Translations under genes and position numbers: made by a program
The notes under the pieces: model-generated
Told to the model about the DNA's origin: nothing
Database searches by the model: none
The model's input: the letters and a program-made list of their open reading frames with translations, nothing else
Assembly (NCBI GenBank): GCA_037380845.1
Contig: JARRRI010000028.1
Span: 1-18,082 of the forward strand
Length of the DNA: 18,082 nt
Source of the DNA: Candidatus Sulfobium sp.
GTDB lineage: Bacteria > Nitrospirota > Thermodesulfovibrionia > Thermodesulfovibrionales > UBA6898
Reading direction: 5' to 3'
In this document: in pieces, positions 1 to 14,947 of the stretch
Layout: the number at the start of each line of letters is the position of its first letter
How positions within the stretch are numbered: the first letter of the stretch is position 1

Positions 1-195
1 CAGTATATCGCTTGATCGGCAAGGCCGCAATGAGAGCTATTGCTTTTCATGTGGCAAATAATGCTGTTCACTGCCGAGAACTTCAGAATGACTGCCCGCT
101 TGATTTTTGAGTGCCTCCTGAAATCAAAACCGAGCGTTTCAGCCACACATACAAGAGTACTGCCGGAAAGGAGTAATCATACCGCCGACCGGTTT

Positions 196-237
196 TGAGG
201 ACTCGTCGGTGAAGTTGAGAGGCTAACGTTCTTCCTG
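196..237. repeat. 42-bp dispersed direct repeat, copy 1
   Basis: TGAGGACTCGTCGGTGAAGTTGAGAGGCTAACGTTCTTCCTG; ungapped manual alignment gives 35/42 identity to 1932-1973 and 29/42 to 3211-3252. Confidence 0.85.
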
Positions 238-481
238 TAAACCACTCCGGTAGAAGGTACAAATAGACCAAAGGTTACAATGGCAAATAAATAGAGCAAG
301 CACCTACCAACATCGTCCATCCCTGGAAAATATCGATACTATGGCTTGATTGACGAATAGCTTATTTTGTGATAACCAGTAATTGCATAGGATATCGCCT
401 GGGGAAAGCCGAGTTCATTGCGAACGAGGCACCATTTAGTCGTATGAGGGGGGAAAAAGCAAAAAAGGAAGGAGACAGATC

Positions 482-805
482 ATGAAGTATTTACATCAGG
501 CGTCGTATACAGCGGAGGCTCTCTCAGCTATGCTCAAGAACCCACAGAGTCGCAGTGAGATGGTCCGACGGACTATTGAAAAACTCGGAGGCCGTCTCGA
601 AGGCTTTTGGTTCGCCTTCGGGGATTATGATATAGCGCTTGTTTTTGAGATGCCAGATAGTGTAAATGCCGCTGCTTTTTCTATGGCGGCCTCCTCAGGA
701 GGCGGTGTAAAAGCCGTTAAGACTACGCAGTTGCTGACGACTGAGGAGGCGGTAGCAGCTATGAAGAAGGCGGCAAAGTCAGGCTACAAGCCTCCTAAAA
801 AATAG
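482..805 (+). CDS. GYD domain-containing protein
   Basis: 107 aa with the family pattern YT..A...M...P..R......E.LGG.L..F.F.FGDYD......PD; GAAGGAG RBS just upstream of the ATG. Confidence 0.85.
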   Translation: MKYLHQASYTAEALSAMLKNPQSRSEMVRRTIEKLGGRLEGFWFAFGDYDIALVFEMPDSVNAAAFSMAASSGGGVKAVKTTQLLTTEEAVAAMKKAAKSGYKPPKK

Positions 806-815
806 TCAGATCTCT

Positions 816-1043
816 TTGCTGGCACTGAATGAAGTGAGGAATACGCTTCACGCTACATGGACGCCCAAGCCCGTCCCCGGACACACATTCATTCTCGAAG
901 TTTGGGATCGTGATAATTTTGACGGTGGTGCTGACATGATCTGGTTCCAAGTGATTCGTCCAAGTCCCAACGGAACTGTAAGACCAGCGCTGTCGCTCTC
1001 AGAACCCTGCGAGGTGGAGGCCGGGAATATCCTGGTACAGTAA
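816..1043 (+). pseudogene. Probable 5'-truncated remnant (C-terminal part) of a secreted beta-rich protein
   Basis: TTG start with no RBS, 10 bp after the GYD stop. F.LEVWD.D..G.D.IWFQV...G...L...V.AGNILVQ* resembles the C-terminal GGNI.V-type ending of extracellular domains (recalled similarity, not searched). Confidence 0.4.
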
Positions 1044-1210
1044 GGTCTCCTAATAACGTAGTAAGCTGTCCATCAGCGGACGGGCCCAACTGTCCTTCAA
1101 AAGGGGGTGATGTGACTGTTAGTACTACAGATAGTCTTTGATGGTCGTCGGTTTTGGACGGTATGAATCCTTATTTCTTGTAAGGGAAACTTTGTTCCAA
1201 GGGGGTTAAA

Positions 1211-1737
1211 ATGACTAAGAAGATAATCTTCCGTACGTGTCTCACTTTCCTGCTCACTTTTTTCTTTGTTCAGGGGGCCATGGCCGCAGACGAACTTGAA
1301 GTAGTGTTTGAAAGACATAATACATCTATCACTCCCATATATATGAGCGGCCACATGGGAGACTCTAACTGGATTGAAGGATTCAGTTCTACAGCTGATA
1401 TTTATCTGGACAACGTCAAGTGGGAACAAGTTCTGGCACGGTAACATTCTCAAATCCGCCAATGATTCTGGGTGAAAGATACGGCAATTTAATAGTCCAT
1501 TTTACAACCACTATCACGGGCGTAGGGACATATGAGGTAAATGGTCAGGGAATTGTCTTAGCCAGCAGCACTACAACGACGGTTGGAGATACCACGCTCG
1601 CATGGTCTGGCTCAATAAGTAACGGCACCGGCGATCTCTCGAACATTTACGGTTTAAGCGCCGGCACTGGAGTTTCTAATGTTCTTGAAGGTGGAGGAAC
1701 TCTTACGGAAGTAGATCGAGTTCGATTTGAATACTAG
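1211..1737 (+). pseudogene. Secreted beta-rich protein split by a 1-bp frameshift near 1418-1420
   Basis: ORF 1211-1444 has a signal peptide (MTKKIIFRTCLTFLLTFFFVQGAMA/ADE). ORF 1420-1737 continues seamlessly if one base is added in GTCAAGTGGGA (..DNVK-VGTSSGTVTF..), giving 175 aa. The GSISNGTGDLSNIYG motif recalls DUF3224/allene-oxide-cyclase-like barrels. Confidence 0.7.
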
Positions 1738-1838
1738 CAAACGCATTGTCGCTGGGTCGATAAGGACGGGGACCCTGTGATGAATGCCCGCGATTCGAAG
1801 GGATTACTAGAACAGATTATTGCTGCGAGAGTGAATTG

Positions 1839-1870
1839 AGCAGGGGCTAGATCAGTGTCTCGCCCCTGCT
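1839..1870. terminator. GC-rich stem-loop (terminator- or REP-like)
   Basis: AGCAGGGGC (1839-1847) and GCCCCTGCT (1862-1870) are a perfect 9-bp inverted repeat, extended inward by AGAT/GTCT; no clear poly-T tail. Confidence 0.45.
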
Positions 1871-1931
1871 GTCTCAACTGCCAAGTTGGACTTTCTAATG
1901 CTAATCGATAACAGTTGCACTTTCCAATAAG

Positions 1932-1973
1932 TGAGGACGTGTCGGTGGAGTTGAGAGGCAAGAGTCCTTCCTG
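1932..1973. repeat. 42-bp dispersed direct repeat, copy 2
   Basis: TGAGGACGTGTCGGTGGAGTTGAGAGGCAAGAGTCCTTCCTG; 35/42 identical to 196-237. Confidence 0.85.
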
Positions 1974-2104
1974 AAGTAGACACTTGAACAATACTTCGCG
2001 GGCATGTACACTTTTGTTAGAAATATATATTTATGACTGTAATGGAGGTTTTATACGCCGCAATATCGAACATGCGTGCAACAAGTGCGGCAAAGCAGTT
2101 GACG

Positions 2105-3156
2105 TTAGGCGACATCACTGGTGTTTGATATCGGGTGCGACACCCTGACCCAAAGCTATGAAACAAGAAGGGCCTTAGCGTTATGAAAAAGCACACTATC
2201 TTCCTCGCGATCTTGCTCACCGTCGCATGCATATTGTCCCCTGGGGTCACATGGGCTCAAGGAAATTTAAAAGCCGCTACTTCGTGACGAGTGACGGCGT
2301 CAAACTCCACTACTTGGAAGCGGGATCCGGCCCGCCCCTCGTGTTTGTGCCCGGCTGGACTATGCCTGCGTGGATCTGGGAATCGCAGCTGAGATACTTC
2401 GGCGCGACCCGTCGGGTGGTGGCCCTCGACCCGCGCGGGCAGGGTCGTTCCGACAAGCCTACGAAGGGATATCATGCGACCCGGCGCGGGCGCGACATTT
2501 ACGAACTGCTCAACAACTTGGGCGGCGAACCCGCCGTCGTTGTGGGCTGGTCTCTCGGCGTGCAGGAAGTTCTCGTTTGTGCTCACGAGTTTGGGACTAG
2601 ACGCATTCGAGCCATCGTACTCGTGGATCATCCTGTCGTCATGGACCCAAAAATGGTCCTTGCGATAGCAAGCGAGAGAATTAAACTTTTGCAGGTGAAC
2701 CGGGAGGCCTGGACGCGGAGTTTTGTCAAAGACATTCTGCGAAAGCCCCCTTCCGACGCTTATCTGGAGGCCCTGACCCAAGCTGCCCTCTTTACACCGA
2801 CGAACGCTGCCGCCATCATGATGGCCAATCTCTACTTCATAGGGCCGACCGATTTGGGTCCAGCGCTAGATGCCCTGGACCGCCCCGTGCTCTTCGTCTA
2901 TTCGTCTCTCGAATGGGCTGTGGCCGCAGCCGAAGATGTTCGCAAGGGTTGGCCGAAGGTGCCTGTAAAGGTTATCGAGGAACCCTCGCACGCCGTCTTC
3001 GTCGCTAAACCGCAGGAATTCAACCGCGTGCTGGAAGAGTTTCTAGCTTCGTTGCCGAAATAGTGCGAGGGCGTCTTGAAATGCCTGTGACAGCATGTCG
3101 CCTAACACGGCGTTGTACCTGACGGCCCGCTGCGTGGCCCGCAGGTGAACACTACG
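2105..3156 (+). mobile_element. Integron gene cassette (1052 bp) carrying an alpha/beta hydrolase; solitary, no intI in window
   Basis: Begins at core site G^TTAGGC (2104-2110, GTTRRRY) and ends in attC at G^TT (3156). GTTAGGCGACAT (2104-2115) is the exact reverse complement of ATGTCGCCTAAC (3095-3106), as expected for a circularisable cassette. It holds one gene oriented toward attC. Confidence 0.85.
2183..3063 (+). pseudogene. Secreted alpha/beta-fold hydrolase (non-heme haloperoxidase/arylesterase-like), frameshifted after the signal peptide near 2261-2265
   Basis: Catalytic body in ORF 2227-3063: DGVKLHY.EAGSG, VPGW, DPRGQGRS, GWSLG nucleophile elbow, SHAVF His. Signal peptide MKKHTIFLAILLTVACILSPGVTWAQ starts at ATG 2183 in another frame; one extra A in GGAAA joins them into 293 aa. 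Confidence 0.8.
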
Positions 3157-3162
3157 TTAACA
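3100..3162 (+). other. attC recombination site (63 bp)
   Basis: R'' GCCTAAC (3100-3106), 5-nt spacer, L'' GTTGTACC (3112-3119, one extra base), central palindrome TG[A]CGGCC..GGCCCGCA, L' GGTGAAC (3144-3150), 5-nt spacer, R' GTTAACA (3156-3162). It starts 36 bp after the hydrolase stop. Confidence 0.88.
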
Positions 3163-3210
3163 ACTGTTAGTTCCTAGTATAAATCCACGATAGTTGCAGT
3201 TCAGCGTACC

Positions 3211-3252
3211 TGTCGACTTGTCGGTGAAGCCGCCACCCTCGGCTTCTTCCTG
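3211..3252. repeat. 42-bp dispersed direct repeat, copy 3 (diverged centre)
   Basis: TGTCGACTTGTCGGTGAAGCCGCCACCCTCGGCTTCTTCCTG; 29/42 to copy 1 with identical spacing; shares AGTTGCA at the same upstream offset as copy 2; internal 7-bp stem GAAGCCG/CGGCTTC. Confidence 0.65.
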
Positions 3253-3585
3253 AACTCTAAACTTTCCAGACGGACTTGGTAAAAGACCGGCTCTTTTTCC
3301 AAGTCCCTTGCTTCACAGGCATCCTGGATTGGTGCAATGCGGCTGCATACTCTTGCCTGTCGACCTGACGAGTGACCTACCCCCGAAACAAGAATCCTCA
3401 ATTATTTGGAAAATTTATAAAAAATTATACATTCTCAGCCTGTCCGTCTCTCGAAAGCCGACAACATCTCCACATTCAAATCCTTATCCCGGATAATTTT
3501 CCATCCCACATTTTGTTGCCTTACATCCGTCGCACACAATATATGGAATAAATAAGAAAAAAATTAGAAAAATAAAATTTTTTTC

Positions 3586-3614
3586 TTGACACAAAAAATG
3601 TTCTGCCTTATAGT
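3586..3614 (+). promoter_or_regulatory. Sigma70-type promoter of the dcw operon
   Basis: TTGACA (3586-3591), 17-bp spacer, TATAGT (3609-3614); A/T tracts upstream (about 3547-3584) fit an UP element. Confidence 0.85.
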
Positions 3615-3616
3615 TG

Positions 3617-3642
3617 GTGGTAAATAGTGGAGGAAAGTGGAG
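3617..3642 (+). promoter_or_regulatory. MraZ-binding repeats
   Basis: GTGG at 3617, 3627 and 3637 (GTGGTA, GTGGAG, GTGGAG), exact 10-bp period, between the -10 and the mraZ start; matches known MraZ operator architecture. Confidence 0.85.
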
Positions 3643-3648
3643 GGAACA

Positions 3649-4101
3649 ATGCCGGCTTTCTCCGGAAAATATTATTACAGCTTGGACCCAAAGGGGAGAA
3701 TCATCATACCCGCTCCTTTCAGGGAAATAATTTCCTCCAATTATAACCCGAAACTGTACGTTGTCAACGCGGCCTTCGATAAATGCCTCCATATCTATCC
3801 CCAGGAGGAATGGAACAGGCATGAAGAAAAGGTCCGCCAGCTTCCGACGATGCTCGAAGAGGTGCGATTTTATATGAGAAAGGTCATCGCTTCGGCCCAG
3901 GAAGTCGAGATGGACAAACAGGGGAGGATACTCATACCCGCCGCTCACAGGGCCGACTCGGGATTGAATACCGATATCGTGATGGTGGGGTTAATAGAAA
4001 AAATTGAGTTGTGGGACAAGAAAGAATGGGAAGCCGCGGTCGACCCCGCCCGCATCGACAGGAGAACGGTGGAAGAAAAACTTGCGGCGTACGGGCTCTA
4101 A
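3649..4101 (+). CDS. mraZ: Transcriptional regulator MraZ
   Basis: Two SpoVT/AbrB repeats (LDPKGRIIIP, MDKQGRILIP) and first gene of the dcw operon. ATG 3649 after GGAGG is preferred over GTG 3637, which is an operator box. Confidence 0.96.
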   Translation: MPAFSGKYYYSLDPKGRIIIPAPFREIISSNYNPKLYVVNAAFDKCLHIYPQEEWNRHEEKVRQLPTMLEEVRFYMRKVIASAQEVEMDKQGRILIPAAHRADSGLNTDIVMVGLIEKIELWDKKEWEAAVDPARIDRRTVEEKLAAYGL

Positions 4102-4108
4102 ATAAAGC

Positions 4109-4261
4109 AAGAAGTAAAAAGTACGAAGTCAGAATGTAACAAAGTGAAGAGAGGAAATTCAGAATGCAAAAAAAGGCAGAAAAAAGGCAAAAACAGAAGT
4201 TTGGCAAGGCGGCCGGTCCGTCTTTAACTTCTGCATTCTGCAGTCTGCATTCTGATTTCAG
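4109..4261. repeat. Imperfect inverted element built of 7-bp units in the mraZ-rsmH spacer
   Basis: Left AAGAAGT AAAAAGT ACGAAGT CAGAATG (4109-4136), plus CAGAATG (4160) and CAGAAGT (4194); right ACTTCTG CATTCTG CAGTCTG CATTCTG ATTTCAG (4227-4261), complementary to the left units. Confidence 0.75.
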
Positions 4262-4270
4262 ACCGGCGTA

Positions 4271-5143
4271 ATGACGCCGGCAGAGCATCTGCCGGTACTC
4301 GTCAGAGAGGTTGTGGACCTTCTCTCGCCACATGAGGGAGGGTTGTATGTAGATGCAACGGTGGGACTTGGCGGGCATTCGGAGGAGATTTTGAAAATGA
4401 TCGGCCGTAACGGAAGATTGATAGGTATCGACAGAGACGATGCCGCCCTCCGCATAGCGGGTGAGAGATTGGAAGACCCGCGGGTGCTCCTGAAGAAAAG
4501 CAGGTTTTCCGAAATGGGAGACGTCATCGTGCCGTACGGTAAGGCGGACGGCATACTTTTCGACCTCGGCGTTTCGATGATGCAGCTCAGGAAACTCGAA
4601 AGAGGGTTCAGTTTTCTATCGGATGAGAGACTGGATATGCGCATGGACAGGACCCAGAGTCTTACCGCCTGGGAGGTGGTAAATCATTATTCGGAAAAGG
4701 AACTTATCCGGGTGCTGAAGGAATATGGCGAGGAGCCCCGGGCTCCTAGGATAGCGAGGGCGATCGGCCGGTACAGGAAAGAAGCCGATATCGATACCTG
4801 CTCCGAACTCGCCGAGCTCATCTCACGTTCTGTAGGAAGGAGGGGGAGAATCCATCCCGCAACCAGGACTTTTCAGGCCCTCAGGATCGAGGTCAACGAT
4901 GAAATGAGAGAACTCCAGTGGGGACTGAACTCTTCGCTGAACTTATTGAAGAGCGGAGGGCGGATGTGTGTTATCTCCTACCATTCCCTGGAAGACCGGA
5001 TCGTCAAGAATTTCATCAGAGAGAACGCCAGAGGGGGAGCGCTGAAACCCCTGACAAAGAAGCCCGTAACCCCCGGTATAAAGGAAATCCGTGAGAATCC
5101 GTCTTCCAGGAGCGCCAAGATGAGAGGTGCCGAGAGACTATGA
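4271..5143 (+). CDS. rsmH: 16S rRNA m4C1402 methyltransferase RsmH
   Basis: H.PVL..EV, DATVGLGGHS, DLGVS, LDMRMD, HPATRTFQALRIEVN, ISYHSLEDRIVK, NP.SRSAK. Confidence 0.98.
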   Translation: MTPAEHLPVLVREVVDLLSPHEGGLYVDATVGLGGHSEEILKMIGRNGRLIGIDRDDAALRIAGERLEDPRVLLKKSRFSEMGDVIVPYGKADGILFDLGVSMMQLRKLERGFSFLSDERLDMRMDRTQSLTAWEVVNHYSEKELIRVLKEYGEEPRAPRIARAIGRYRKEADIDTCSELAELISRSVGRRGRIHPATRTFQALRIEVNDEMRELQWGLNSSLNLLKSGGRMCVISYHSLEDRIVKNFIRENARGGALKPLTKKPVTPGIKEIRENPSSRSAKMRGAERL

Positions 5144-5502
5144 TCAGCCCTAAAACAAATACCTCTATGCTATCATTACTGTATAAACCGCTGGTGGTTG
5201 CCTGTCTGCTCCTCGGTCTGTTCGGACTCATATGGCTGAGGTCCAGAATAGTTGCCGTAAACTACGAAATACACAACCTCGAAGAAAAGAAGATGGACGC
5301 CCTCACCGATATGAAGCTCCTCCTCGCCGACAGGGCGAAGCTTATGTCCCTTGCAAAAATCGACACGTCGCTGCAGAGAACAGCCACTGATAAACGATAT
5401 GCCGGGGGCGGATACGTATTCCCGGACCGGGTCAAAGTCGTACACGTAAAAAGAAGCAAAGGGTTGGCACCTTATAACGTAGCGTTTAAACGCGCGCAAT
5501 GA
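5140..5502 (+). CDS. ftsL: Cell division protein FtsL (divergent)
   Basis: Short N-terminus, one TM helix, then a coiled coil (YEIHNLEEKK..L..L); lies between rsmH and ftsI with an ATGA overlap. Confidence 0.75.
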   Translation: MISPKTNTSMLSLLYKPLVVACLLLGLFGLIWLRSRIVAVNYEIHNLEEKKMDALTDMKLLLADRAKLMSLAKIDTSLQRTATDKRYAGGGYVFPDRVKVVHVKRSKGLAPYNVAFKRAQ

Positions 5503-5557
5503 GACGGAGGAAGCCGCATCTCCCGGTCTCTCATTTGGCGCGCCGCGGTGGAATGAC

Positions 5558-7288
5558 GTGAACAGGAAAAGGACCATTATCTTGAATACTGCCCTGGTTT
5601 TTGGTTTCCTGGTCATATTTCTCCGCCTTATAGACCTGATGATTTTTAAGCACAGACTCCTCTCTGAAAGGGCCAGGTTGCAACAGATGACTACGGAGGA
5701 CGTACAGGCCATGAGAGGAAACATCTATGACAGGAGAGGACGGGCTTTCGCTGTAAACGTTGAACTCGAATCCCTTTACTGCGATTCAAAGGAAGCGGCT
5801 ATCGACAAGGAGAGAATAAAGGCGCTGTCGTCGGTACTGAACATGAAGCCTGCCATCGTTCAGTCAAGGCTTGAGAAGAACAGAAGTTTTACCTGGCTTG
5901 ACAGAAAACTGCATCCCGACACCGTAAAAAAAGTGAAAGTGGTGCTCGGCATGAAGCCCGGCGGCAAAGAAGCCCCTGCCCGTGGATTCGGCTTCATCCC
6001 TGAGGCCAAGCGCCTGTACCCCAACGGCAGCCTGGCAGCCCACGTCATAGGGGCCGTCGGCCTTGACAACCAGCCGCTTGAGGGACTAGAGCTCAAATTC
6101 AACAAGTACCTCAATGCGGCCGGGGGAAAGGTGCGTTTCTCACGTGATGCGAGCGGGAACCTTCTTTCCTCGGGGGCGAACCTGGAAACCAAAGGCGATG
6201 ACATCCGGCTTACTATCGATGAGGGACTCCAGTATATAGTTGAGAGGCAACTGGACCGGGCAATGACGAAGTGGAGGGCAAAGGCGGCAACGGCCGTCAT
6301 GATGGACCCTTTCACCGGTGATATACTTGCCCTGGCAAACAGGCCCACTTACAATCCCAACGACCTGGGCCGCTCTACCAGAAACGAGATGAGAGACAGG
6401 GCCATCACCGACGTATACGAACCCGGCTCCACCTTCAAGATCGTCGTGGGATCTGCCGCGCTCGAGGAAAAGGCCGTCGGTCTCAATTCGACGTTCGACT
6501 GCAGTAAGGGGTATATCGTAGTGGGAGGTCATGCAATACACGACGCCCACAAACACGGCGTTCTTACGTTCAGAGAGGTAATTCAGAAATCGTCCAATGT
6601 CGGGACCACGATGATAGGTATGAAGCTCGGCAAGGAGAAGATTTACAGGTATGCAAAACGCTACGGCTTCGGTGATGCCACCGGCATTGATCTTCCCGGT
6701 GAAGTCTCCGGCTGGATCAGAAAACCTGACAACTGGTCGGCAACGTCTGTCGGGGCTGTGTCGATAGGCCAGGAGGTGGCGGTAACGCCCCTGCAGATGC
6801 TCAGGGCCTATTCAGCCGTTGCCAACGGAGGTTTTCTTGTCCGGCCTCACGTGGTAGCGGAAATAAGGACACACACAGGTAAAACGGTCTATTCTTTCAG
6901 GCCGGCGCCTCTGAAAAGGGTGGTCTCGGAAGAAACGGCGCTCCGCTTCAAGAATATCCTGAAGACGGTAGTCGAAGAAGGCGGTACTGCGCCGGACGCC
7001 GCCGTAGACGGCAACGAAGTGGCGGGGAAGACGGGCACGGCCCAGTTGTTCGACCGCAAGACCGGAAGATATTCGAAGAGCAGATACGTCAGCTCGTTTG
7101 TGGGCTTCGTACCGGCTGATAATCCGAAGATAGCAGTGATCGTCGTCGTCTACGAACCTAAAGGGATGGCGTATGGAGGCATTGTGGCAGGGCCCGTATT
7201 CAGGAATATTGCCGATCAGGCCCTGTCGTACCTCAACGTGCCGAGGGACGATGCACCCGATAAAAACCTTCTTCTGGTGTCAAAATGA
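5558..7288 (+). CDS. ftsI: Class B penicillin-binding protein FtsI/PBP3
   Basis: N-terminal TM, RG.IYDR, R.YP.G, GLE, EPGSTFK (SxxK), SSN (SxN), KTGT; GTG start. Confidence 0.96.
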   Translation: MNRKRTIILNTALVFGFLVIFLRLIDLMIFKHRLLSERARLQQMTTEDVQAMRGNIYDRRGRAFAVNVELESLYCDSKEAAIDKERIKALSSVLNMKPAIVQSRLEKNRSFTWLDRKLHPDTVKKVKVVLGMKPGGKEAPARGFGFIPEAKRLYPNGSLAAHVIGAVGLDNQPLEGLELKFNKYLNAAGGKVRFSRDASGNLLSSGANLETKGDDIRLTIDEGLQYIVERQLDRAMTKWRAKAATAVMMDPFTGDILALANRPTYNPNDLGRSTRNEMRDRAITDVYEPGSTFKIVVGSAALEEKAVGLNSTFDCSKGYIVVGGHAIHDAHKHGVLTFREVIQKSSNVGTTMIGMKLGKEKIYRYAKRYGFGDATGIDLPGEVSGWIRKPDNWSATSVGAVSIGQEVAVTPLQMLRAYSAVANGGFLVRPHVVAEIRTHTGKTVYSFRPAPLKRVVSEETALRFKNILKTVVEEGGTAPDAAVDGNEVAGKTGTAQLFDRKTGRYSKSRYVSSFVGFVPADNPKIAVIVVVYEPKGMAYGGIVAGPVFRNIADQALSYLNVPRDDAPDKNLLLVSK

Positions 7289-8781
7289 AGCTGAAGGAAA
7301 TCCTGAAAGGAGTCCGGACGATAAGCGTATCGGGAGATGCCGAAGCAGAGATCAGCGGCATTTCTTATGATTCGCGAAAAGTCGCCGCCGGGCATCTGTT
7401 TGTCGCCATACGGGGCGGGAAATTCGACGGTCATGACTTCGTGGAAGACGCGATCGCAAGAGGTGCAGCCGCAATAATGTATGAAAAGACCGGAACCGTC
7501 ACCCCGGTGGAGGCCTTATCCCAAAAAAGGCCGGCAGTCTCCCTTATAAGAGTGGAGGACAGCCGGGAGGCGATCGCCTGTGCCGCAGGCAATTTCTTCA
7601 TGAAGCCGTCCGAAGCCCTGACGGTGGTCGCCATCACCGGTACGAACGGAAAAACAACTACGGCATATCTGGTGAAGTCCATCATCGAGTGCTGGGGCAT
7701 GAAGGCGGGACTGGTGGGAACGATCCGGTATATGGCCGGCGACAAGACATACGACGCCCCCCACACGACGCCGGAAGCGCCTGATTTCCAGGAAATGCTC
7801 CGGACAATGCTCGCCGAGGGATGCACCCACGTTGCCGTCGAGGTATCCTCACATGCTCTGACACAGAAAAGAGTTGAGGGGACAACATTCAGGGCGGCTG
7901 TCTTCACCAACCTTACGAGGGACCACCTTGATTTCCACGGGAGCATGGAAAACTATTTCCTGGCAAAGGAGAGATTGTTCACTGGACTCCTGAGTGAAAA
8001 AGGGACCGCGGTGATAAACTTCGACGATCCTTATGGAAGAAGGCTTCTGGCCGGCATGGGCCGCGGGAGACAGGTTTTGACTTACGGCCTTGAAGCGGGC
8101 CCGGACCTGAGGGCCACGGAGATCGATAATTCCTTCGGCGGGCTCCGGTTCAAAATAAATGTTCGCGGAAGGGCATACAACGTGGTCTCCCCGCTGATGG
8201 GACTGCCGAACGTATACAATATCCTTGCAGCCGCCGGTGTTTCGGCCTCTATCGGCGTACCCTGGAAGATCATAGTCGAAGGCATCGGGAATTCCAGAAT
8301 GGTAAAGGGCAGGTTCGAAAAAGTCGACGCCGGGCAGGGGTTCCTGGCCGTTATCGATTACGCCCATACCGAAGACGCCCTTGAAAGGCTGATTTACACC
8401 GCCAGGGGACTGACCGAAGGCAAAATCATCACTGTTTTCGGCTGCGGAGGAGACAGGGACAGGGGGAAAAGGCCGGCGATGGGCTCGATTGCAACCAGGC
8501 TGAGTGATTTTGTTATTATAACTTCTGACAACCCCCGATCAGAGAGACCGGAGAGGATAATTCAGGAAATCGAAGCCGGCGCCACGCGGAAAAACTACCT
8601 TATCGAACCGGACAGAGAGGCAGCAATCAGGAGGGCCGTTCTGATCGCTCAGGAAAATGATGTGGTCCTCGTCGCCGGGAAAGGTCATGAGGATTATCAG
8701 GAAATTGAGGGGAAAAGGTTCAAATTCAATGACAGGGAGGTACTGGAAAGGGCGATAAGGCAGATGATCAACAACACATAG
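7285..8781 (+). CDS. murE: UDP-MurNAc-L-Ala-D-Glu:meso-DAP ligase
   Basis: ITGTNGKTT, EVSSH, TNLTRDHLDFH, DYAHT, DNPR (mDAP specificity), AGKGHE. Confidence 0.98.
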   Translation: MKLKEILKGVRTISVSGDAEAEISGISYDSRKVAAGHLFVAIRGGKFDGHDFVEDAIARGAAAIMYEKTGTVTPVEALSQKRPAVSLIRVEDSREAIACAAGNFFMKPSEALTVVAITGTNGKTTTAYLVKSIIECWGMKAGLVGTIRYMAGDKTYDAPHTTPEAPDFQEMLRTMLAEGCTHVAVEVSSHALTQKRVEGTTFRAAVFTNLTRDHLDFHGSMENYFLAKERLFTGLLSEKGTAVINFDDPYGRRLLAGMGRGRQVLTYGLEAGPDLRATEIDNSFGGLRFKINVRGRAYNVVSPLMGLPNVYNILAAAGVSASIGVPWKIIVEGIGNSRMVKGRFEKVDAGQGFLAVIDYAHTEDALERLIYTARGLTEGKIITVFGCGGDRDRGKRPAMGSIATRLSDFVIITSDNPRSERPERIIQEIEAGATRKNYLIEPDREAAIRRAVLIAQENDVVLVAGKGHEDYQEIEGKRFKFNDREVLERAIRQMINNT

Positions 8782-8825
8782 TCATCGGCTGTTATTGGCA
8801 GTGGGGGCCACCGACAGAAAGAAAT

Positions 8826-10196
8826 ATGGGGCATTTACAACTCGATGATATCTTAAAGGCTACAGGGGGACGAGCACTCAGCGGACACAGCGGCGAGTTC
8901 ACAGGTCTGTCCATTGACTCAAGGACGATCAGGAGCGGGGAAATATTCCTCGCCCTTAAAGGACCGCATTTCGACGGCCACGATTTTCTCGACGCCGCCC
9001 TGAGAACCGGCGCAGGCGCCATTGTGGAGTTTCCTCCTGCCCGGGTGCCGGCCGGCAAAACGATTGTCCTCACAGAGAATTCCCTTGCCGCCCTTCAAGG
9101 CATTGCAAGGTACCTTCGCAATAAGTCCGAAGTTCCGGTTGTCGGCATAACCGGTACAAACGGCAAGACCACCACCAAAGAACTCATCGCGTCAATTCTG
9201 GGCAGGAAATACTCTGTACTGAAGACATCAGGAAACCTGAACAACCACATAGGACTGCCTTTGAGCGTGGCAAACGGGACGGGGGAGGAAGATGTGATGG
9301 TGCTGGAAATGGGCTCCAATGTCGCCGGAGACATAAAACTGCTCTGCGAAATCGCCCGTCCCAACTTTGCAGTTGTTACCAATGTCGGCGAGGCACATCT
9401 TGAGGGCTTCGGCAGCCTCGACATGGTCAGGAAAACCGACCTGGAAATCCTCGAATACGTCCGCACTGTTTGCGCAAACGCCGACGACAGTTTCCTCATG
9501 GAAGGCATAAAAGGCTTCCGCGGGGAAGTCATTACCTACGGGGTGAAGAACGGTGCGGAGGTAATGGCCGGGGACATCGCACTGGGGGAAAAGGGGGCCC
9601 ATTTCACTCTTAACCTGCCGGACGGAAAGAAGGCCGAAATAAGACTCGGCGTCCCCGGTGCCGTCAATATTTACAATGCCCTGGCGGCAGCCGCGATCGC
9701 CTGGGTACTGAAGGTGAAGACGGCAGAGATCAGCGAAGGACTGGGGTCTTTTGGCGGTGTACGGATGAGGCTGGAAGTGCTGGAACATTCAGGGGCACTG
9801 GTGATCAGCGATGTCTACAACGCAAATCCGGCATCCATGGAAGAAGCGGTGAGAGAGCTTGTCCGGCTGAAGAAGAAGAGGACCATCGCCGTGCTCGGGG
9901 ACATGCTGGAACTCGGCCCTTACTCCGGAGATGCCCACAGGAAGCTGGTCGACGCGCTGTCTGAAGCGCGCATAGACGTCCTGGTGGCGGTGGGGCCGGA
10001 GATGATCGCCGCCTCCGCCGGGTTTGGAGGAATGCGCTTCACGGCGGAAGACTCGGACAGGGCCAGGCCGCTAGTGGCGGAATTACTCGCTGAGGGAGAT
10101 ACAATACTTGTGAAAGGGTCGCGCGGCATGCGGATGGAAAGGGTTCTGCCCCTTTCCCCGGAGCATCCGGCAAAAGAGGCGTCCCGTGCTTTATAA
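8826..10196 (+). CDS. murF: UDP-MurNAc-tripeptide:D-Ala-D-Ala ligase
   Basis: DSR, ITGTNGKTTTKE, GNLNNHIGLP, D.YNANPASM, LGDMLELG, KGSRG..ME. Confidence 0.98.
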   Translation: MGHLQLDDILKATGGRALSGHSGEFTGLSIDSRTIRSGEIFLALKGPHFDGHDFLDAALRTGAGAIVEFPPARVPAGKTIVLTENSLAALQGIARYLRNKSEVPVVGITGTNGKTTTKELIASILGRKYSVLKTSGNLNNHIGLPLSVANGTGEEDVMVLEMGSNVAGDIKLLCEIARPNFAVVTNVGEAHLEGFGSLDMVRKTDLEILEYVRTVCANADDSFLMEGIKGFRGEVITYGVKNGAEVMAGDIALGEKGAHFTLNLPDGKKAEIRLGVPGAVNIYNALAAAAIAWVLKVKTAEISEGLGSFGGVRMRLEVLEHSGALVISDVYNANPASMEEAVRELVRLKKKRTIAVLGDMLELGPYSGDAHRKLVDALSEARIDVLVAVGPEMIAASAGFGGMRFTAEDSDRARPLVAELLAEGDTILVKGSRGMRMERVLPLSPEHPAKEASRAL

Positions 10197-11268
10197 GGCC
10201 CTGTATTATTTTCACAACCTGTTTTTTCCCCTGAACGTCTTCAGATATATAACGTTCAGGACCGCTCTGGCCGTGATAACGGCCATGTTGCTGTCCCTTG
10301 TTATCGGCCCCCGCCTCATCGTCTGGCTCAAGAAGATCAGCGTCACACAACAGATCAGGACCGACGGCCCCCAAAGCCATCTCAAGAAAACCGGGACGCC
10401 GACCATGGGGGGGATAATAATCATAACCTGCGTGCTGGCAACGGTCCTTCTCTGGGGAGAACTTGAAAACATGTACGTATGGATAATGGTCCTTTCCCTG
10501 GTCGGATACGGGGCAATAGGCCTCCTCGACGACTACCTGAAGGTGGTGAGAAAAAATTCCAGAGGCCTGCGTGCTTGGCACAAATTCGGTTCACAGATAG
10601 CCCTTGCCCTGGCGATCGGGGTCCTCCTTTATTTCAATCCCAAGGACCCCTACGCCGACGTATTGAGCATCCCCTTTTTCAAGAAATGGCTTTTCGACCT
10701 GGGACTGTTCTACATACCTTTTTCTGTTGTGGTGGTAGTCGGGGCATCGAATGCGGTCAATCTTACCGACGGGGTTGACGGCCTCGCCATAGGGCTGGTC
10801 GGCATCGCGCTTCTTGCGAATATTGTACTCGTTTATATCTCCGGCAATGCACGTTTTGCAGAGTATCTGCAGGTCCTTTACCTTCCCGGTACGGGCGAAC
10901 TGACTGTCGTATGCGGCGCCATGCTCGGAGCGTCCCTGGGGTTTCTTTGGTTCAACTCCTACCCTGCGGACGTCTTCATGGGCGATGTGGGGTCCCTTGC
11001 ACTGGGAGGTGCGCTGGGCACCCTTGCGATCATAACCAAACATGAGATTGTTCTGGCGGTGGTGGGCGGTATTTTTGTGATAGAGACCCTTTCGGTGGTA
11101 TTCCAGGTGGCATCCTTCAAGTTGACCGGCAAGAGGATCTTCAGGATGGCCCCCATCCATCACCACTTCGAGCTTAAGGGGTGGCATGAATCAAAGGTAA
11201 TAGTGAGGTTCTGGATTGTCGGTATAATGCTTGCGCTGCTGAGTCTGGCAACGCTGAAACTGAGGTGA
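10186..11268 (+). CDS. mraY: Phospho-MurNAc-pentapeptide transferase
   Basis: GTPTMGG, DDY.K, NAVNLTDGVDGL, FMGDVGSL, MAPIHHHFE; multi-TM. Confidence 0.98.
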   Translation: MLYKALYYFHNLFFPLNVFRYITFRTALAVITAMLLSLVIGPRLIVWLKKISVTQQIRTDGPQSHLKKTGTPTMGGIIIITCVLATVLLWGELENMYVWIMVLSLVGYGAIGLLDDYLKVVRKNSRGLRAWHKFGSQIALALAIGVLLYFNPKDPYADVLSIPFFKKWLFDLGLFYIPFSVVVVVGASNAVNLTDGVDGLAIGLVGIALLANIVLVYISGNARFAEYLQVLYLPGTGELTVVCGAMLGASLGFLWFNSYPADVFMGDVGSLALGGALGTLAIITKHEIVLAVVGGIFVIETLSVVFQVASFKLTGKRIFRMAPIHHHFELKGWHESKVIVRFWIVGIMLALLSLATLKLR

Positions 11269-12320
11269 CTATGAAAAAATTCCTGACAAGAAGTCGGCAG
11301 TCAAAAGTCAATGACGTAAAGCTATTTTATATATTTATTTTGCTGCTTTTCATTCTTTACTTTTCAGCTGCAACCCCTGTTCTGGCCCGCCAGATAAGAG
11401 CCAGAGCCGCCGTCGTCATGGATGCGAAGACAGGGAGAGTGCTATATGCAAAGAATCCGGATGCCAGGCTGATGCCGGCCAGCACAACAAAACTGGTTAA
11501 TGCCCTGGTGGTACTGGAAAGGGCTAAACTGGACGACGTAACAACCGTCAGCGGAAGGGCGGCGGCCCAGCCGCCCACCAAGGCCTATCTTAAAAAAGGC
11601 GACAAGGTGACGATCAGAGCGCTGCTTTACGCGGCACTTATGAAATCCGCCAATGACGCTGCAGTCGCCCTTGCGGAGGCCGTAGCCGGTTCCGAAAGAG
11701 CGTTTGTCAGGCTCATGAACAGAAAGGCGATAGCGATCGGAGCCGACGAAACGAGGTTCATCAACGCCAACGGCCTCCCGGGCCGCGGCCAGCGCATAAC
11801 GGCCCGGGACCTGGCGATAATAATGAGACAAGCCATCAGGTATCCTCTTCTCAGAGAGATCATGGGCACCCGTGTAAAGGAGGTCTCGACCAGGGACGGA
11901 AAGACGATGTTCATCAAGAATACGAACAGGCTCCTTTGGTCTGACGACGACGTGCTGGGCGGGAAGACTGGCTATACCCGGAAAGCCAGGCACTGCTTTG
12001 TGTGTGCCGGCGAACGCGATAACGATACTATAATCGTCGCTATCCTGGGGGCGCCCCACAGGAACCTGTTATGGAAAGAAGCCGAATACCTGATGGACGT
12101 AGGCGAGAAGATAATGAGCAGTGACTCCCGGCCGGTCGTCGTCGTTACAAAGCATCACAGGTCTTCAGGGAAAACCCTGTCGGCCAAAAAAGGGCGCGGG
12201 CGAAGAGTCGTAGTCAGGAAGAGAAGCAAAAAGGACAGGTCCGTGCTTGTGAGAAACAGGATAAGCGAAGAAAAGATACGTGCGGTTGCCAGGCAGGAGG
12301 ACGATGGAAACAGAGGGTAA
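11265..12320 (+). CDS. Peptidase S11 D-Ala-D-Ala carboxypeptidase/endopeptidase (low-MW PBP)
   Basis: PASTTK (SxxK), SAND (SxN), F.N..GL, GKTGYT; N-terminal hydrophobic anchor; Lys/Arg-rich tail. Start is GTG 11265 or ATG 11271. Confidence 0.92.
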   Translation: MTMKKFLTRSRQSKVNDVKLFYIFILLLFILYFSAATPVLARQIRARAAVVMDAKTGRVLYAKNPDARLMPASTTKLVNALVVLERAKLDDVTTVSGRAAAQPPTKAYLKKGDKVTIRALLYAALMKSANDAAVALAEAVAGSERAFVRLMNRKAIAIGADETRFINANGLPGRGQRITARDLAIIMRQAIRYPLLREIMGTRVKEVSTRDGKTMFIKNTNRLLWSDDDVLGGKTGYTRKARHCFVCAGERDNDTIIVAILGAPHRNLLWKEAEYLMDVGEKIMSSDSRPVVVVTKHHRSSGKTLSAKKGRGRRVVVRKRSKKDRSVLVRNRISEEKIRAVARQEDDGNRG

Positions 12321-13746
12321 GAAGATAACGGTTGTAGGCCTTGCGCGGAGCGGACTGGGGGCCGCCAACCTCCTGGCATCCCTGGGGGCCTCGGTCACCG
12401 TTACCGACATAAAGACAGAAGAGGAACTCGACGACTTCGTAACCAGGCTTTCCCCTTCCGTACGACTTGCGCTGGGGGGGCATCCGGAGGAGGTATTTAC
12501 CTCGTCGGATATGCTGGTTTTAAGCCCCGGGGTCCCGGCGACTCTCTCGTCCGTCGGCAAGGCGCGGGAGAGAGGAGTCCCGGTAGTGGGCGAGCTTGAG
12601 CTCGCATACCGGCTGGCAAAAAACGGATCGCGCAGGAGGCTTTTCGGCTCCGGCGTGACTTTTCTTGCGATCACAGGCAGCAACGGCAAATCCACCACCA
12701 CATCTCTTCTGGATCTTATCCTCAGGAAAAGCGGTTACAGGACCGTTCTGGGCGGTAATATAGGAAACGCCCTGACAGAGGAATTCCGCAGAGTGGAAGC
12801 AGGCGGGTCTGCATATGATTTCGTTGTGGCTGAAGTCTCGAGCTTTCAGCTGGAGACCATAGATGTATTCAGGCCCCACATTGCGGCCATACTCAATATC
12901 ACCCCGGACCACATGGACCGGTATCGGTCGCTTTCTGATTACTCGGAAGCGAAAGCAAGGATATTCCTCAACCAGGACAGGGATGATTTTCTCGTCCTTA
13001 ATGCCGACGATCCGGAGGTGCGGGCCCTCCACGAAAGAAAATTTTATGACGCTCCTCCTGAGGGCCGGTCTCTGCCCCGGGTCTGCTGGTTCAGCCGGCG
13101 GAGAAAAGTAGAAGGCGTTTATTTCGAAGACGGCATGATCCACTGCAATATGTCCGGTCTCGGCGACATTCCCCTGTCATTTCAACTTATGAATGCCGCT
13201 GATGTGAAGATAAAAGGAGTCCACAACCTGGAGAATGCCATGGCCGCTGCGGCCATGGCTCTCCTTGCAGGCTGTCCCGTCGGCGCCGTCAGGGAAACAA
13301 TGTGTGAATTCGGGGGGCTGGAGCACAGGCTGGAATTTGTCCGCGAACTCGACGGCGTCACGTATATCAACGATTCCAAGGGGACCAATACGGGGGCTGT
13401 CCTTAAGTCGCTGGAAAGCTTCAGGCGCCCCGTGGTGCTGATAGCCGGAGGCAGGGACAAAGCAGGCGATTTTTCCGTGCTGGGTCCGCTTGTGTCGGAG
13501 AGAGTGAAGACCCTGGTCCTTATCGGCGAGGCCGCCGGAAAAATGAAAGGAGTTCTGGGGGGCCTCACGGAAACGGTAATCGCAAAAGACCTGAGGGAGG
13601 CGGTAGAACTGTCCCGTGAGAAGGCCGCCGGGGGCGATGTAGTGCTCTTGTCGCCGGCTTGCGCAAGTTTTGACATGTTCAGGGATTTCGAGGACAGAGG
13701 GCGGCAGTTCAAAGAAATAGTGATGGAGCTGGTCAATGGTGGATAA
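12304..13746 (+). CDS. murD: UDP-MurNAc-L-Ala:D-Glu ligase
   Basis: GLARSG, SPGVP, ITGSNGKSTTT, EVSSFQL, DHMDRY, EHRLE, NDSKGTN, SPACASFD; ATG 12304 follows AGGAGG. Confidence 0.97.
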   Translation: METEGKKITVVGLARSGLGAANLLASLGASVTVTDIKTEEELDDFVTRLSPSVRLALGGHPEEVFTSSDMLVLSPGVPATLSSVGKARERGVPVVGELELAYRLAKNGSRRRLFGSGVTFLAITGSNGKSTTTSLLDLILRKSGYRTVLGGNIGNALTEEFRRVEAGGSAYDFVVAEVSSFQLETIDVFRPHIAAILNITPDHMDRYRSLSDYSEAKARIFLNQDRDDFLVLNADDPEVRALHERKFYDAPPEGRSLPRVCWFSRRRKVEGVYFEDGMIHCNMSGLGDIPLSFQLMNAADVKIKGVHNLENAMAAAAMALLAGCPVGAVRETMCEFGGLEHRLEFVRELDGVTYINDSKGTNTGAVLKSLESFRRPVVLIAGGRDKAGDFSVLGPLVSERVKTLVLIGEAAGKMKGVLGGLTETVIAKDLREAVELSREKAAGGDVVLLSPACASFDMFRDFEDRGRQFKEIVMELVNGG

Positions 13747-14947
13747 CTCCCCGGCCGACGTCAAAGCTCCCTTCATCAGGACGTATGACAAGTTCCTTTT
13801 ATTCACCATGCTTCTACTCCTGTCGTTCGGTGCGCTCATGATCTACAGCTCGACGTCCGTTGTCACTCCCCTCCTTGCAAAGAAAAATATCACTCAATTC
13901 TATTATTTCAAGAGGCACCTTTTCACCATGTTTGTCGGCGGAATGGTCATGATCGTCGCTTATTCCATCAGGCCGTCGTTCTATAAAAGGGCGGCTGTAC
14001 CTGCGCTGGTACTTTCCTTTATCCTTCTGGTCCTGGTATTTTTCCCCCATATAGGGGTATCCGCCGGGGGCGCAAGGAGGTGGATCCGGCTCTGGCCGAC
14101 GACATTCCAGCCTTCCGAGCTTGTGAAGCTGGCGATGGTCGTATTTCTCGCGAAGTACATGTCTTCCCCGGATTATGACACCGAGAAGTTCAGCTCCTTC
14201 GCGAAACCTCTTGCCGTGATGGTCGTTTTCCAGCTGGTATTTCTGAAGCAGCCGGATTTCGGCTCCACGATGAGCCTCGCCTTTTTGACCTTCGCCATGC
14301 TCTTCGTTTCCGGGATGAGACTGAGGTATATCGCCTCTGTCCTCGTCCTCGCGCTGCCGGTCTTATACAAGCTTGTCATGGAGCCATACCGCCTCAGGAG
14401 GATCACCTCTTTTCTCGACCCCTGGAAAGACCCCATGGGAAGCGGATTTCAGCTGGTCCAGTCCTTCATAGCCCTGGGAAGCGGCGGCCTCACGGGTCTC
14501 GGTCTCGGTGAATCGAGGCAGAAACTGTCCTTTCTGCCGGCTTCACATACGGATTTTATCTTTTGCCTGGTAGGAGAAGAGCTGGGTCTTATCGGTGCCT
14601 CCGTCCTGATCGCTCTCTTCCTCTTTCTCTTCATGAGGGGCATCACGATCGCCTCGAGGTCCCGGGACAAGTTCATTCACTACCTCTCTTACGGGCTCAC
14701 GCTGATGCTGTCGCTTCAGGCCCTCGTCAACTTTGCGGTTGTTACCGGTCTTGTCCCGACAAAGGGACTCCCCCTGCCCTTTGTGAGCTACGGCGGCTCA
14801 GCCCTGCTGGCCAATATGGCGGCCGTTGGTATCCTGCTCAGGGTATCGAGAGGTGACGACAAACAGGCCCCGGGGGAGGAGAAACACATAAAGGCGAGGA
14901 GATTGGCAAGACGCAATATTTACAGCAGGAAGGGGTACCGCAATTGA
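13736..14947 (+). CDS. ftsW: SEDS peptidoglycan polymerase FtsW
   Basis: GARRWI, FQPSE.VK, QPDFG, FLP..HTDFIF, GEELG, P.KG..LPF.SYGGS; directly before murG. Confidence 0.96.
   Translation: MVDNSPADVKAPFIRTYDKFLLFTMLLLLSFGALMIYSSTSVVTPLLAKKNITQFYYFKRHLFTMFVGGMVMIVAYSIRPSFYKRAAVPALVLSFILLVLVFFPHIGVSAGGARRWIRLWPTTFQPSELVKLAMVVFLAKYMSSPDYDTEKFSSFAKPLAVMVVFQLVFLKQPDFGSTMSLAFLTFAMLFVSGMRLRYIASVLVLALPVLYKLVMEPYRLRRITSFLDPWKDPMGSGFQLVQSFIALGSGGLTGLGLGESRQKLSFLPASHTDFIFCLVGEELGLIGASVLIALFLFLFMRGITIASRSRDKFIHYLSYGLTLMLSLQALVNFAVVTGLVPTKGLPLPFVSYGGSALLANMAAVGILLRVSRGDDKQAPGEEKHIKARRLARRNIYSRKGYRN

Follow-up and report, generated by a model that had tools for sequence, protein, structure and literature searches.

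What separates the small genes that lie upstream of mraZ in Candidatus Sulfobium sp.? The window analysed here is one stretch of 18,082 nucleotides of this genome, whose population occurs in marsh samples. The original prediction described three diverged 42-nt direct repeats in it, proposed that they delimit cargo genes, and read them as traces of a hidden minus-strand coding sequence. The cargo-delimiting part, with its breakpoints, held up in our analysis, and the coding part did not.

A repeat search of the window recovered the three repeats as one 42-nt family (Table 1). Copies 2 and 3 are 83% and 69% identical to copy 1, and the spacings between the copies are 1736 and 1279 nt. Their internal spacing had also been described correctly; the pattern GAC-N2-GTCGGTG-RAG-N15-Y-CTTCCTG matches exactly these three sites with 0 mismatches, and 0.00 matches are expected from 200 dinucleotide-preserving shuffles of the window. 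Assembly-wide, five copies of the 42-nt unit were found at E<=0.01, namely the three in the window, C83:195-245 and C23:36296-36350. The linker type of copy 3 is also that of the copy at C23:36296.

Table 1. Coordinates of repeats, element arms, attC-like sites and genes in the window
Feature	Position	Strand	Remarks
Repeat copy 1	196-237	+	GTCGGTG core 205-211, 19-nt linker, CTTCCTG 231-237
GYD-domain protein gene (cargo)	482-805	+	Pfam PF08734, E 6.6e-23
Weaker attC-like site	1050-1125		between ORF 816-1043 and ORF 1211-1737; two-box match 1054-1122, minus strand
Secreted 175-aa protein gene (cargo)	1211-1737	+	split here into 77- and 105-aa frames
Left arm and core bearing repeat copy 2	1880-1950	+	model R1, 55.1 bits
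Repeat copy 2	1932-1973	+	core 1941-1947, CTTCCTG 1967-1973
Alpha/beta hydrolase gene (cargo)	2183-3063	+	signal-peptide part 2183-2287 and body 2227-3063 in different frames
attC-like site behind hydrolase gene	3100-3162	+	end boxes CTAAC ... CGTTA; GTT box abuts next element
Left arm and core bearing repeat copy 3	3153-3229	+	model R1, 56.4 bits
Repeat copy 3	3211-3252	+	other linker type; core 3220-3226, CTTCCTG 3246-3252
mraZ promoter-like site (3586-3614) and mraZ	3586-4101	+	start of conserved division/cell-wall cluster bounding the array

The element and the array upstream of mraZ

The 42-nt repeats make up the downstream portion of an oriented element of ~100-130 nt that lies between genes. 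The element starts with a left arm of ~70 nt, which is followed by the heptamer GTCGGTG, the core. One subfamily adds a 19-nt linker and a second heptamer, CTTCCTG, after the core. The left arm contains two direct repeats of ~22 nt built around AGTT(T/G)C, and three direct boxes in it contain GTT. Repeat copy 1 has no recognisable left arm. We searched 54 genomes of the host's family, from 16 genera, with model R1 (left arm and core) and model R2 (the 42-nt unit), both at E<=0.01. R1 matched in 42 of the 54 genomes, with 17 copies in this genome and up to 29 in others, and R2 matched in 14 of the 54 genomes and 7 of the 16 genera. As the original prediction anticipated, further copies therefore lie elsewhere in this genome and in related genomes. 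Of the 77 cases with an ORF on the left-arm side, 49 have the nearest such ORF in the same orientation as the element, ORFs being called crudely as longest frames only. Both same and opposite orientations of the element were seen within contigs. The whole window had no match in Rfam at E<=1, and no such element was found in the open-access literature on integrons in Nitrospirae or Thermodesulfovibrionia.

Conservation of the element lies in its sequence and not in a fold. RNAalifold predicted no pairs from 80 copies, and the pairing and covariation of three proposed helices (left-arm hairpins and an attC-like fold of the first half) were not above those of shuffled controls.

Our best reading of positions 1-3600 of the window is an array made up of three or more modules, located at a variable site upstream of mraZ. 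The GYD gene has a second copy on contig C67 with 96% identity and diverged copies in two other genomes of the family, G061 and G057. The stretch 443-1016, which includes the GYD gene, is absent from the copy of the module in G012, a genome of another genus. The gene for the secreted protein is intact in G012, and the main contig from metagenome run X1 has an extra G behind position 1419. Family-wide conservation begins at ~3533-3580, ahead of mraZ. In G012, a gene that lies at C23:33.6 kb in the present genome is found ~1.3 kb upstream of mraZ instead, and thus the array appears to fill a variable gap. The element was not found upstream of mraZ in relatives, in any of 11 loci. Copy 3 forms the final junction ahead of the mraZ promoter.

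Breakpoints at the two heptamers

Homology between loci and between genomes begins or ends at the two heptamers, in agreement with the proposed role of the repeats as cargo delimiters. The repeats coincide with breakpoints of gene gain and loss. Positions 231-442 and 1017-1919 of the window recur in G012 (contig C372) with 94% identity, and this homology starts at 231, the first base of CTTCCTG in copy 1. High-identity homology ends at 1919, and all similarity stops after the core of copy 2. Homology to the GYD unit of G061 begins at 205, the core of copy 1. For the pair G000/G012, high-identity homology ends in the second box of the left arm, between AG and TTGCA.

We compared 69 copies with 600-nt flanks, all against all. 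Four left-flank homologies end at -28, 0, 0 and +1 from the last base of GTCGGTG, that is, at the heptamer in three of the four pairs. Of the eight right-flank homologies, all begin within -38 to -7, three of them at -7 or -8 and five left of -8. The left arms resemble each other, which blurs the end at -28 and these five starts. These informative flank pairs are a handful, and the related genomes are not independent of each other. A cytochrome c module in G057 and G058 is 89% alike over a stretch that begins at the ribosome-binding site, takes in the gene, an attC-like site and the left arm, and ends with GTCGGTG; beyond it the two copies diverge. This module lies at different loci in the two genomes, and the full heptamer is absent from its 5' end in both. 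Furthermore, identical right flanks occur behind differing left arms: a 159-nt sequence does so in five copies, and a second family in three. In contigs from metagenome run X12, the 1941-1973 unit is joined to other sequences on its left and on its right: the match to the window begins at 1941 or 1944, and in three contigs it ceases after 1973. Read depth in the bin 1861-1984 is 31.6, whereas most other covered bins have ~3-4 and one other has 27.1. Left and right flanks thus combine independently of each other around a short core that they share, as is expected of att sites in general.

Not every locus gave this picture. At one G057 locus, the block absent from G058 starts upstream of the element, not at the core. 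A clean pair of empty and filled sites for the element alone was not found; the two loci at which G057 was compared with its genus showed rearrangements instead of simple insertions. No excised or deleted forms were seen, and the contigs of four runs contained no such joints.

A putative cassette-type recombination site

From these breakpoints we infer that the ends arise by site-specific recombination and that modules move as units. We give an about even chance to the explanation that a cassette-type recombination system uses the element as its junction site, and that a putative recombinase shuffles modules among loci and genomes of the family. The element, which sits behind co-oriented genes, would be the joint between small gene modules. 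Its left arm would move with the upstream module, and the sequence after the heptamer would move with the downstream module. Crossover would then be site-specific and take place in the 7-bp core, where the putative recombinase may exchange cassette-sized modules in this anaerobic Nitrospirota family.

More tentatively, we suggest that this is a second cassette system beside classical integrons in Thermodesulfovibrionales-type Nitrospirota, in which promoterless modules would be moved at the 7-bp core by a non-integron, possibly housekeeping recombinase. Modules would end in a double-strand site defined by its sequence (left arm and GTCGGTG, sometimes with CTTCCTG). Exchange at this site may build arrays such as that upstream of mraZ and may couple them with attC-bounded cassettes.

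No recombinase linked to the element was found. Among 100 neighbouring ORFs at 20 loci there was no transposase beyond two IS110-family genes, and there was one Xer-like gene. Besides the integron integrase and XerC/XerD, this genome has tyrosine recombinases on contigs C90, C55 and C82. A housekeeping recombinase, as in Xer-dependent modules, would explain the absence of a linked dedicated enzyme. Xer-dependent modules include the pdif modules of Acinetobacter plasmids and integrative elements exploiting Xer, and their sites are 28 bp long, with two 11-bp arms and a 6-8-bp centre. The present modules resemble them in that genes without their own recombinase are bounded by short conserved sites. 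Unlike in dif, a two-arm layout or a dif-like sequence was not seen in the element by eye. Tandem accretion of att-flanked integrative and cis-mobilisable elements, which the original prediction had in mind, is similar in that direct repeats of an att core partition the cargo and the arms assort independently at a short core of identity. It differs in that the present modules are 1-2 kb long without an integrase, have no tRNA or protein-gene target, and occupy many loci per genome.

To our knowledge, integrons are the one well-understood system to date that builds up a stock of single-gene cassettes. A junction element that is spread through the lineage, is defined by its sequence, lies beyond attC sites and gives the precise module ends without tracking the integrase would imply that either integron arrays in Nitrospirota hold an unrecognised second type of site, or another enzyme shuffles cassettes. 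The element supplies a 7-bp core and a ~70-nt arm as a concrete substrate for recombination assays, and it is a simple marker for variable gene modules in uncultured sulfate-reducing Nitrospirota. Should the element prove to be only a mosaic intergenic repeat, it would still represent a repeat family not described before, one that explains many of the contig breaks in these assemblies.

Mosaic repeats, integron sites and other alternatives

Such a mosaic repeat, similar to BIME/REP of E. coli and BOX of pneumococcus, is the alternative that survives best, and we regard it as rather unlikely. It would reach the ends of transcription units by spreading alone or with the help of a transposase acting in trans. 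The repeats would then be hot spots of insertion or homologous exchange, not ends of modules cut at a defined core. The element shares much with these repeats: it is modular, with several alternative right-hand parts, oriented, intergenic, placed at ends of transcription units, and a target of other mobile elements. It is dispersed at a low to moderate number of 1-29 copies per genome, often beside housekeeping genes (selB, rpsA, transketolase and mutS2), and tandem pairs 65-110 nt apart exist. Unlike them, it has no palindromic hairpin with covariation, is fused to attC, and has unique flanks that break at fixed heptamers. These flanks stop there to the base in three of the four left-flank pairs, which speaks against a mosaic repeat. 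The start of many copies at the attC crossover triplet and the missing empty/filled pair for the element alone also argue against a repeat that spreads by itself.

IS110-family elements, known repeat hunters, lie beside or inside copies in G053, G057 and G061, which is consistent with a mosaic repeat. As the driver, this family was rejected; its recombinase is present in 26 of the 54 genomes, yet none was found in this genome or in G012. Y1 transposases showed no clear link to the element. Of the two Y1 (IS200-like) genes in this genome, one has a single partial copy ~280 nt away, a point in favour of a mosaic repeat, and the other has none. Neither a palindromic unit nor a Y1 gene flanked by copies, the marks of REP/BIME spread by Y1, was found. 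We also considered and rejected a transposon end. One inverted pair of 154-nt repeats surrounds a sulfatase gene in G061, but the 100 ORFs next to the element at 20 loci include no transposase apart from the two IS110-family genes.

Next in order is an unusual integron site, attI-like, partial-attI or a favoured secondary target, used by the integron integrase, with the window as a cassette array lacking the integrase. We consider this unlikely. Many copies of the element begin at the GTT of a classical attC site; such sites directly adjoin the element here and in copies of four other genomes (G041, G051, G052 and G058). The end boxes at 3100-3162 are the same as those of the attC sites beside this genome's own integrase. 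This site folds modestly, with -12.8 and -15.1 kcal/mol on its two strands, and the two-box attC motif alone is not significant in the window, with at least two matches in 15 of 200 shuffles. The three direct GTT boxes of the left arm, the end of the G000/G012 homology inside the second of them, and the TT that follows the core in 12 of 54 copies, four of which have TTAACAAC there, like the attC end boxes here, also point toward an integron site. As in integron cassettes and integrase-less attC clusters, the modules are small, mostly single-gene and in one orientation, and each is followed by a recombination site. Further shared features are arrays at a variable place in the chromosome, module homology that stops at the site, and attC-like sites together with a true integron integrase in the same genome.

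The element itself differs from attC. Integron sites are recognised by shape and are therefore found with structure models. Neither the 42-nt repeats nor the left arm has the inverted end boxes RYYYAAC ... GTTRRRY, and the conserved feature is the sequence rather than a covarying fold. Its breaks seem to fall at GTCGGTG or CTTCCTG rather than between G and TT as in cassettes; one pair ends between AG and TTGCA, three of the four left-flank pairs end at GTCGGTG, and most breakpoints are at this core, which has no GTT triplet. The element was not found beside integrases. The integrase of this genome (406.7 bits) is on contig C35 with a classical array, not on the contig of the window, and the element is absent from this array and from the 1.5-kb flanks of 11 integrase loci. 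The distribution of the element does not follow that of the integron integrase. It is present in 26 of 35 genomes with the integrase and in 16 of 19 without it, and the integrase is absent from the assemblies with the most copies (29, 26 and 25).

An attI origin was considered and rejected. The left arm looks by eye like a stretch beside some integrases, and an unfiltered model search found nothing there. The attI regions of 11 integrons of the family showed no similarity to the element, the best match having an E value of 0.6 and lying outside attI. Two reports are in favour of an unusual site: cassettes ending in partial attI sites are known from mobile integrons (PMC12901181), and insertion outside att sites is known as well (bioRxiv 10.1101/2022.09.11.507474). 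Partial-attI cassettes are similar to the modules proposed here in having a non-attC site of the double-strand type downstream, beside attC sites in the array, and they differ in the resemblance to attI, which the element does not show to the 11 integrons of the family.

It is very unlikely that the element is a regulatory leader, whether through an upstream ORF of 9 codons or as an operator to which a protein binds. The ORF would consist of GAGGA, 7 nt, the GTG of the core, 8 codons, and TGA within CTTCCTGA. This frame is kept in copies 2 and 3 and, as read by eye, in most other 42-nt units, and the 42-nt unit is still linked to the GYD gene in two genera. In contrast, copy 1 stops at codon 6; over 54 copies, the frame that opens at the core GTG has a median length of 13 codons (range 1-136); most copies carry GCGGA as the purine-rich box; and the peptide is wholly different between the linker types. 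A promoter and terminator scan found no such sites within the 42-nt repeats themselves; the one promoter-like match close to them is a 9-of-12 hit on the minus strand (3216-3187), which overlaps the left arm and the first bases of copy 3.

Finally, the original prediction took the repeats for att scars carrying a fragment that replaces part of a minus-strand protein gene, or for remains of a small paralogous gene. This version is largely refuted and highly improbable, since codon periodicity is absent, about half of the copies have stops, no parent ORF was found, and conservation sits in runs of 5-9 adjacent bases. The mean information per codon phase is 0.98, 0.94 and 0.99 over 70 distinct copies. 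Over ~20 codons, 23 of 48 copies contain a stop in the proposed frame; in the other five frames, 31-36 of 48 do, which is in favour of the proposed one. In the 54 genomes, no open frame of more than 68 aa matched the peptide of copy 2 at E<0.01, and this assembly contained no parent ORF either. The array does not end in an intact parent gene; the frame around copy 3 has 29 codons from stop to stop. The likeness to NUMOD4/HNH endonucleases was not borne out in a search of four minus-strand frames, which gave no Pfam family at E<=0.01. The peptides themselves and the count had been given correctly: five of the seven differences between copies 1 and 2 are in synonymous codons, and the other two are both in one non-synonymous codon. 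The remaining five frames have 0, 0, 3, 0 and 1 differences in synonymous codons. This 5:2 excess, which speaks for a coding origin, is real, but it is a small-sample effect. A loose motif, H-R-x4-(Y/F)-x3-(K/Q)-L-L, recurs in the proposed frame and is also in favour of such an origin. Between copy 2 and its nearest relative in G012, we counted by eye four non-synonymous changes and one synonymous change.

The proposed junction element and its conservation

The three 42-nt direct repeats upstream of mraZ (copies 1, 2 and 3) were confirmed, in register, as the original prediction had claimed; the pattern of letters common to them matches at those three places only, against 0.00 matches in 200 shuffles. 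Copies on other contigs have the core heptamer GTCGGTG in common, plus about 70 nt more on its left. A model (R1) built on sequence alone, from 16 copies of the left arm and core, revealed 17 copies in the source genome and matches in 42 of the 54 family genomes and 12 of 16 genera (E<=0.01), with at most 29 copies per genome. The blocks conserved among 70 distinct copies are TTTCT, AAATCCTCA, ATAGTT(T/G)C, A(T/A)A(C/A)CTG and GTCGGTG, and the first four make up two direct repeats of about 22 nt each. The 42-nt unit, which consists of the core, a 19-nt linker and a second heptamer, CTTCCTG, is one among several alternative continuations past the core. Its model (R2) finds five copies in the source genome and matches in 14 of the 54 genomes and 7 of the 16 genera, with no match in the three other genomes of the source genome's genus. 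Public records with the exact repeat pattern carry the labels Thermodesulfovibrionales, Nitrospirae or Candidatus Sulfobium, with the exception of one 2.1-kb contig labelled Bacteroidota. The element is mostly intergenic; by crude gene calls, 9 of 79 copies lie within an ORF of 90 aa or more. On the left-arm side an ORF is present in 77 cases, and the nearest one has the element's orientation in 49 of them; the ORF on the other side has no orientation preference.

Breakpoints at the two heptamers

The main evidence for the function of the element is its breakpoints. Window positions 231-442 and 1017-1919 have a 94% identical counterpart on a contig of G012, a relative from another genus. This homology begins at the first base of CTTCCTG in copy 1; high identity stops at 1919, within the second AGTT box, and past the core no similarity is left. 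A cytochrome c module shared by two relatives (G057 and G058) is 89% identical over a stretch that opens at the ribosome-binding site, takes in the gene, an attC-like site and the left arm, and reaches GTCGGTG. Past this heptamer the two diverge, and the flanks of the module map to a different locus in each genome. When 69 copies were compared together with their 600-nt flanks, the four left-flank homologies ended at -28, 0, 0 and +1 from the last base of the core, and the starts of the eight right-flank homologies fell between -38 and -7 from it. A 159-nt sequence was counted in five copies as the same right flank behind different left arms, with the left flanks compared at C18, C24, C20 and C27, and a second right-flank family has three copies with different left arms. 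Furthermore, in contigs from a marine-sediment run, other left flanks precede a window match that begins at 1941 or 1944, and in three of the contigs the match stops after 1973; depth is 31.6 in the 1861-1984 bin, whereas most other covered bins read about 3-4 and the 2109-2232 bin reads 27.1. Because of these five comparisons, it can be said that, at the level of sequence, both heptamers behave as shared cores where left and right parts combine, although the informative breakpoint pairs are few, the genomes are related and all of them are drafts.

The main rival explanation is a mosaic intergenic repeat where rearrangements merely tend to occur. The evidence supports the view that the repeats belong to a junction element that spans the family, sits between cassette-like modules, is physically coupled to classical attC sites and has its exchange points in the two heptamers; the exchange itself we infer to be site-specific. 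The earlier idea of repeats that delimit cargo is supported in a modified form: homology does break at the heptamers, and the repeats belong to a larger element. No description of such an element was found in the open literature searched.

The repeats had also been read as a hidden minus-strand coding sequence. The peptides and the count of 5 synonymous differences in 7 behind this reading are both correct. The reading itself is rejected, since conservation lacks 3-base periodicity and in 23 of 48 copies the proposed frame is interrupted by a stop; around copy 3 the frame closes three codons upstream. A search for an intact parent gene found no longer ORF bearing the motif in the source assembly and, with the copy-2 peptide in six frames of the 54 genomes, nothing at E<0.01 whose frame exceeded 68 aa. 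Four minus-strand frames had no match in Pfam. A known RNA or folded site is rejected as well, because the element has no Rfam match, RNAalifold predicted no pairs, and three proposed helices were no better than shuffled controls.

attC sites and candidate enzymes

The element starts at the GTT box of a classical attC-like site in 8 of about 15 source-genome copies inspected, and also in copies from four relatives (G041, G051, G052 and G058). These attC calls rest on likeness to the sites of contig C35, because the two-box motif by itself does not reach significance in the window and no attC model was usable. The source genome carries a true integron integrase, which scores 406.7 bits with TIGR02249 (cut-off 265), and a classical array, both on C35.

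No enzyme was linked to the element. It was not found at 11 integrase loci, nor in the C35 array. Its distribution does not follow the integrase: it is present in 26 of 35 genomes with an integrase and 16 of 19 without, and the assemblies of the three genomes with most copies (96, 83 and 91% complete) lack an integrase. Among 100 ORFs near the element at 20 loci, the only recombinases are two IS110-family genes and one Xer-like gene. IS110-family genes stand beside or inside element copies in G053, G057 and G061, and these insertion sequences may home to the repeat. Since neither the source genome nor G012 has any, they look like repeat hunters rather than drivers. Against the corresponding locus of G059, CTTCCTG in G061 appears to be cut after CTTCCT. 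The two Y1 transposases of the source genome have no clear link to the element.

The variable region upstream of mraZ

The source genome is a 3.18 Mb draft of 104 contigs, and the window covers bases 1-18,082 of its contig C28. A cluster of division and cell-wall genes, with mraZ and rsmH, occupies the window from 3628 onward, and the repeats fall within the 3.6 kb upstream of mraZ. The genes there are on the plus strand only: a GYD-domain gene, a small ORF, a frameshifted secreted-protein gene and an alpha/beta hydrolase gene.

Coordinates of features in the window and on other contigs
Feature	Location	Strand	Remark
GYD gene segment	604-842	+	second copy at C67:1061-1299 (96% identity); C67 also has an element copy at 2620-2672
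Weaker attC-like site	~1050-1125
Secreted-protein gene	1211-1737	+	broken into 77- and 105-aa frames; intact 175-aa ORF in G012
9-codon frame	1945-1974; 3224-3253		core GTG to TGA in CTTCCTGA; GAGGA 7 nt upstream in copy 2; retained by many 42-nt units, not by copy 1
Alpha/beta hydrolase	2183-2287 (signal peptide); 2227-3063 (enzyme body)	+	two parts in different frames
attC-like site	3100-3162		3' of hydrolase gene; abuts element carrying copy 3
Inverted repeat	3272-3306		directly past copy 3; 15-nt arms, 93% complementary, 5 nt apart
159-nt sequence	C18:17192-17350; C24; C20 end; C27:1876		directly after GTCGGTG; opens with TTAACAAC, resembling end boxes of classical attC sites of the source genome
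159-nt sequence, fifth copy	C2:15119-15253		135 nt
Integron	C35:19838-28300		full: integrase (about 110 additional N-terminal residues), attI, at least 7 classical cassettes, one with a 151-aa Y1 (IS200-like) transposase gene
Y1 transposase gene	C22:84882-85829		315 aa; IS200-like Y1 domain and DnaA C-terminal-like helix-turn-helix; partial element copy ~280 nt upstream
IS110-family transposase genes	L125 (G057:C51) 2111-3295; L118 (G061:C103) 7721-9058; G053:C237; G057:C27		within a few hundred bases of the element
Inverted repeat pair	L090 (G061:C111) 1255-1431; 5682-5816		154 nt (element and 66 nt past core); encloses 4.3 kb with a sulfatase-like gene

Family-wide conservation starts only at the mraZ promoter, and the content upstream varies from genome to genome. 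In G012, the counterpart of the source gene at C23:33.6 kb sits about 1.3 kb upstream of mraZ; in the source genome, 6 kb of accessory genes, with additional element copies, extend from this gene to the end of C23. Therefore, the end of C23 and the window, on contigs that are not joined, may be one variable region. Window positions 1-119 match, base for base, the final 119 bases of contig C19 in reverse complement; the assembly forks here into two continuations, and metagenome contigs show the same alternative continuation. In metagenome run X1, the main contig carries an additional G behind 1419, within the secreted-protein gene, and the frameshift around this position is probably an assembly or strain difference. 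The frame mismatch between the signal peptide and body of the hydrolase is a second apparent frameshift among the cargo genes.
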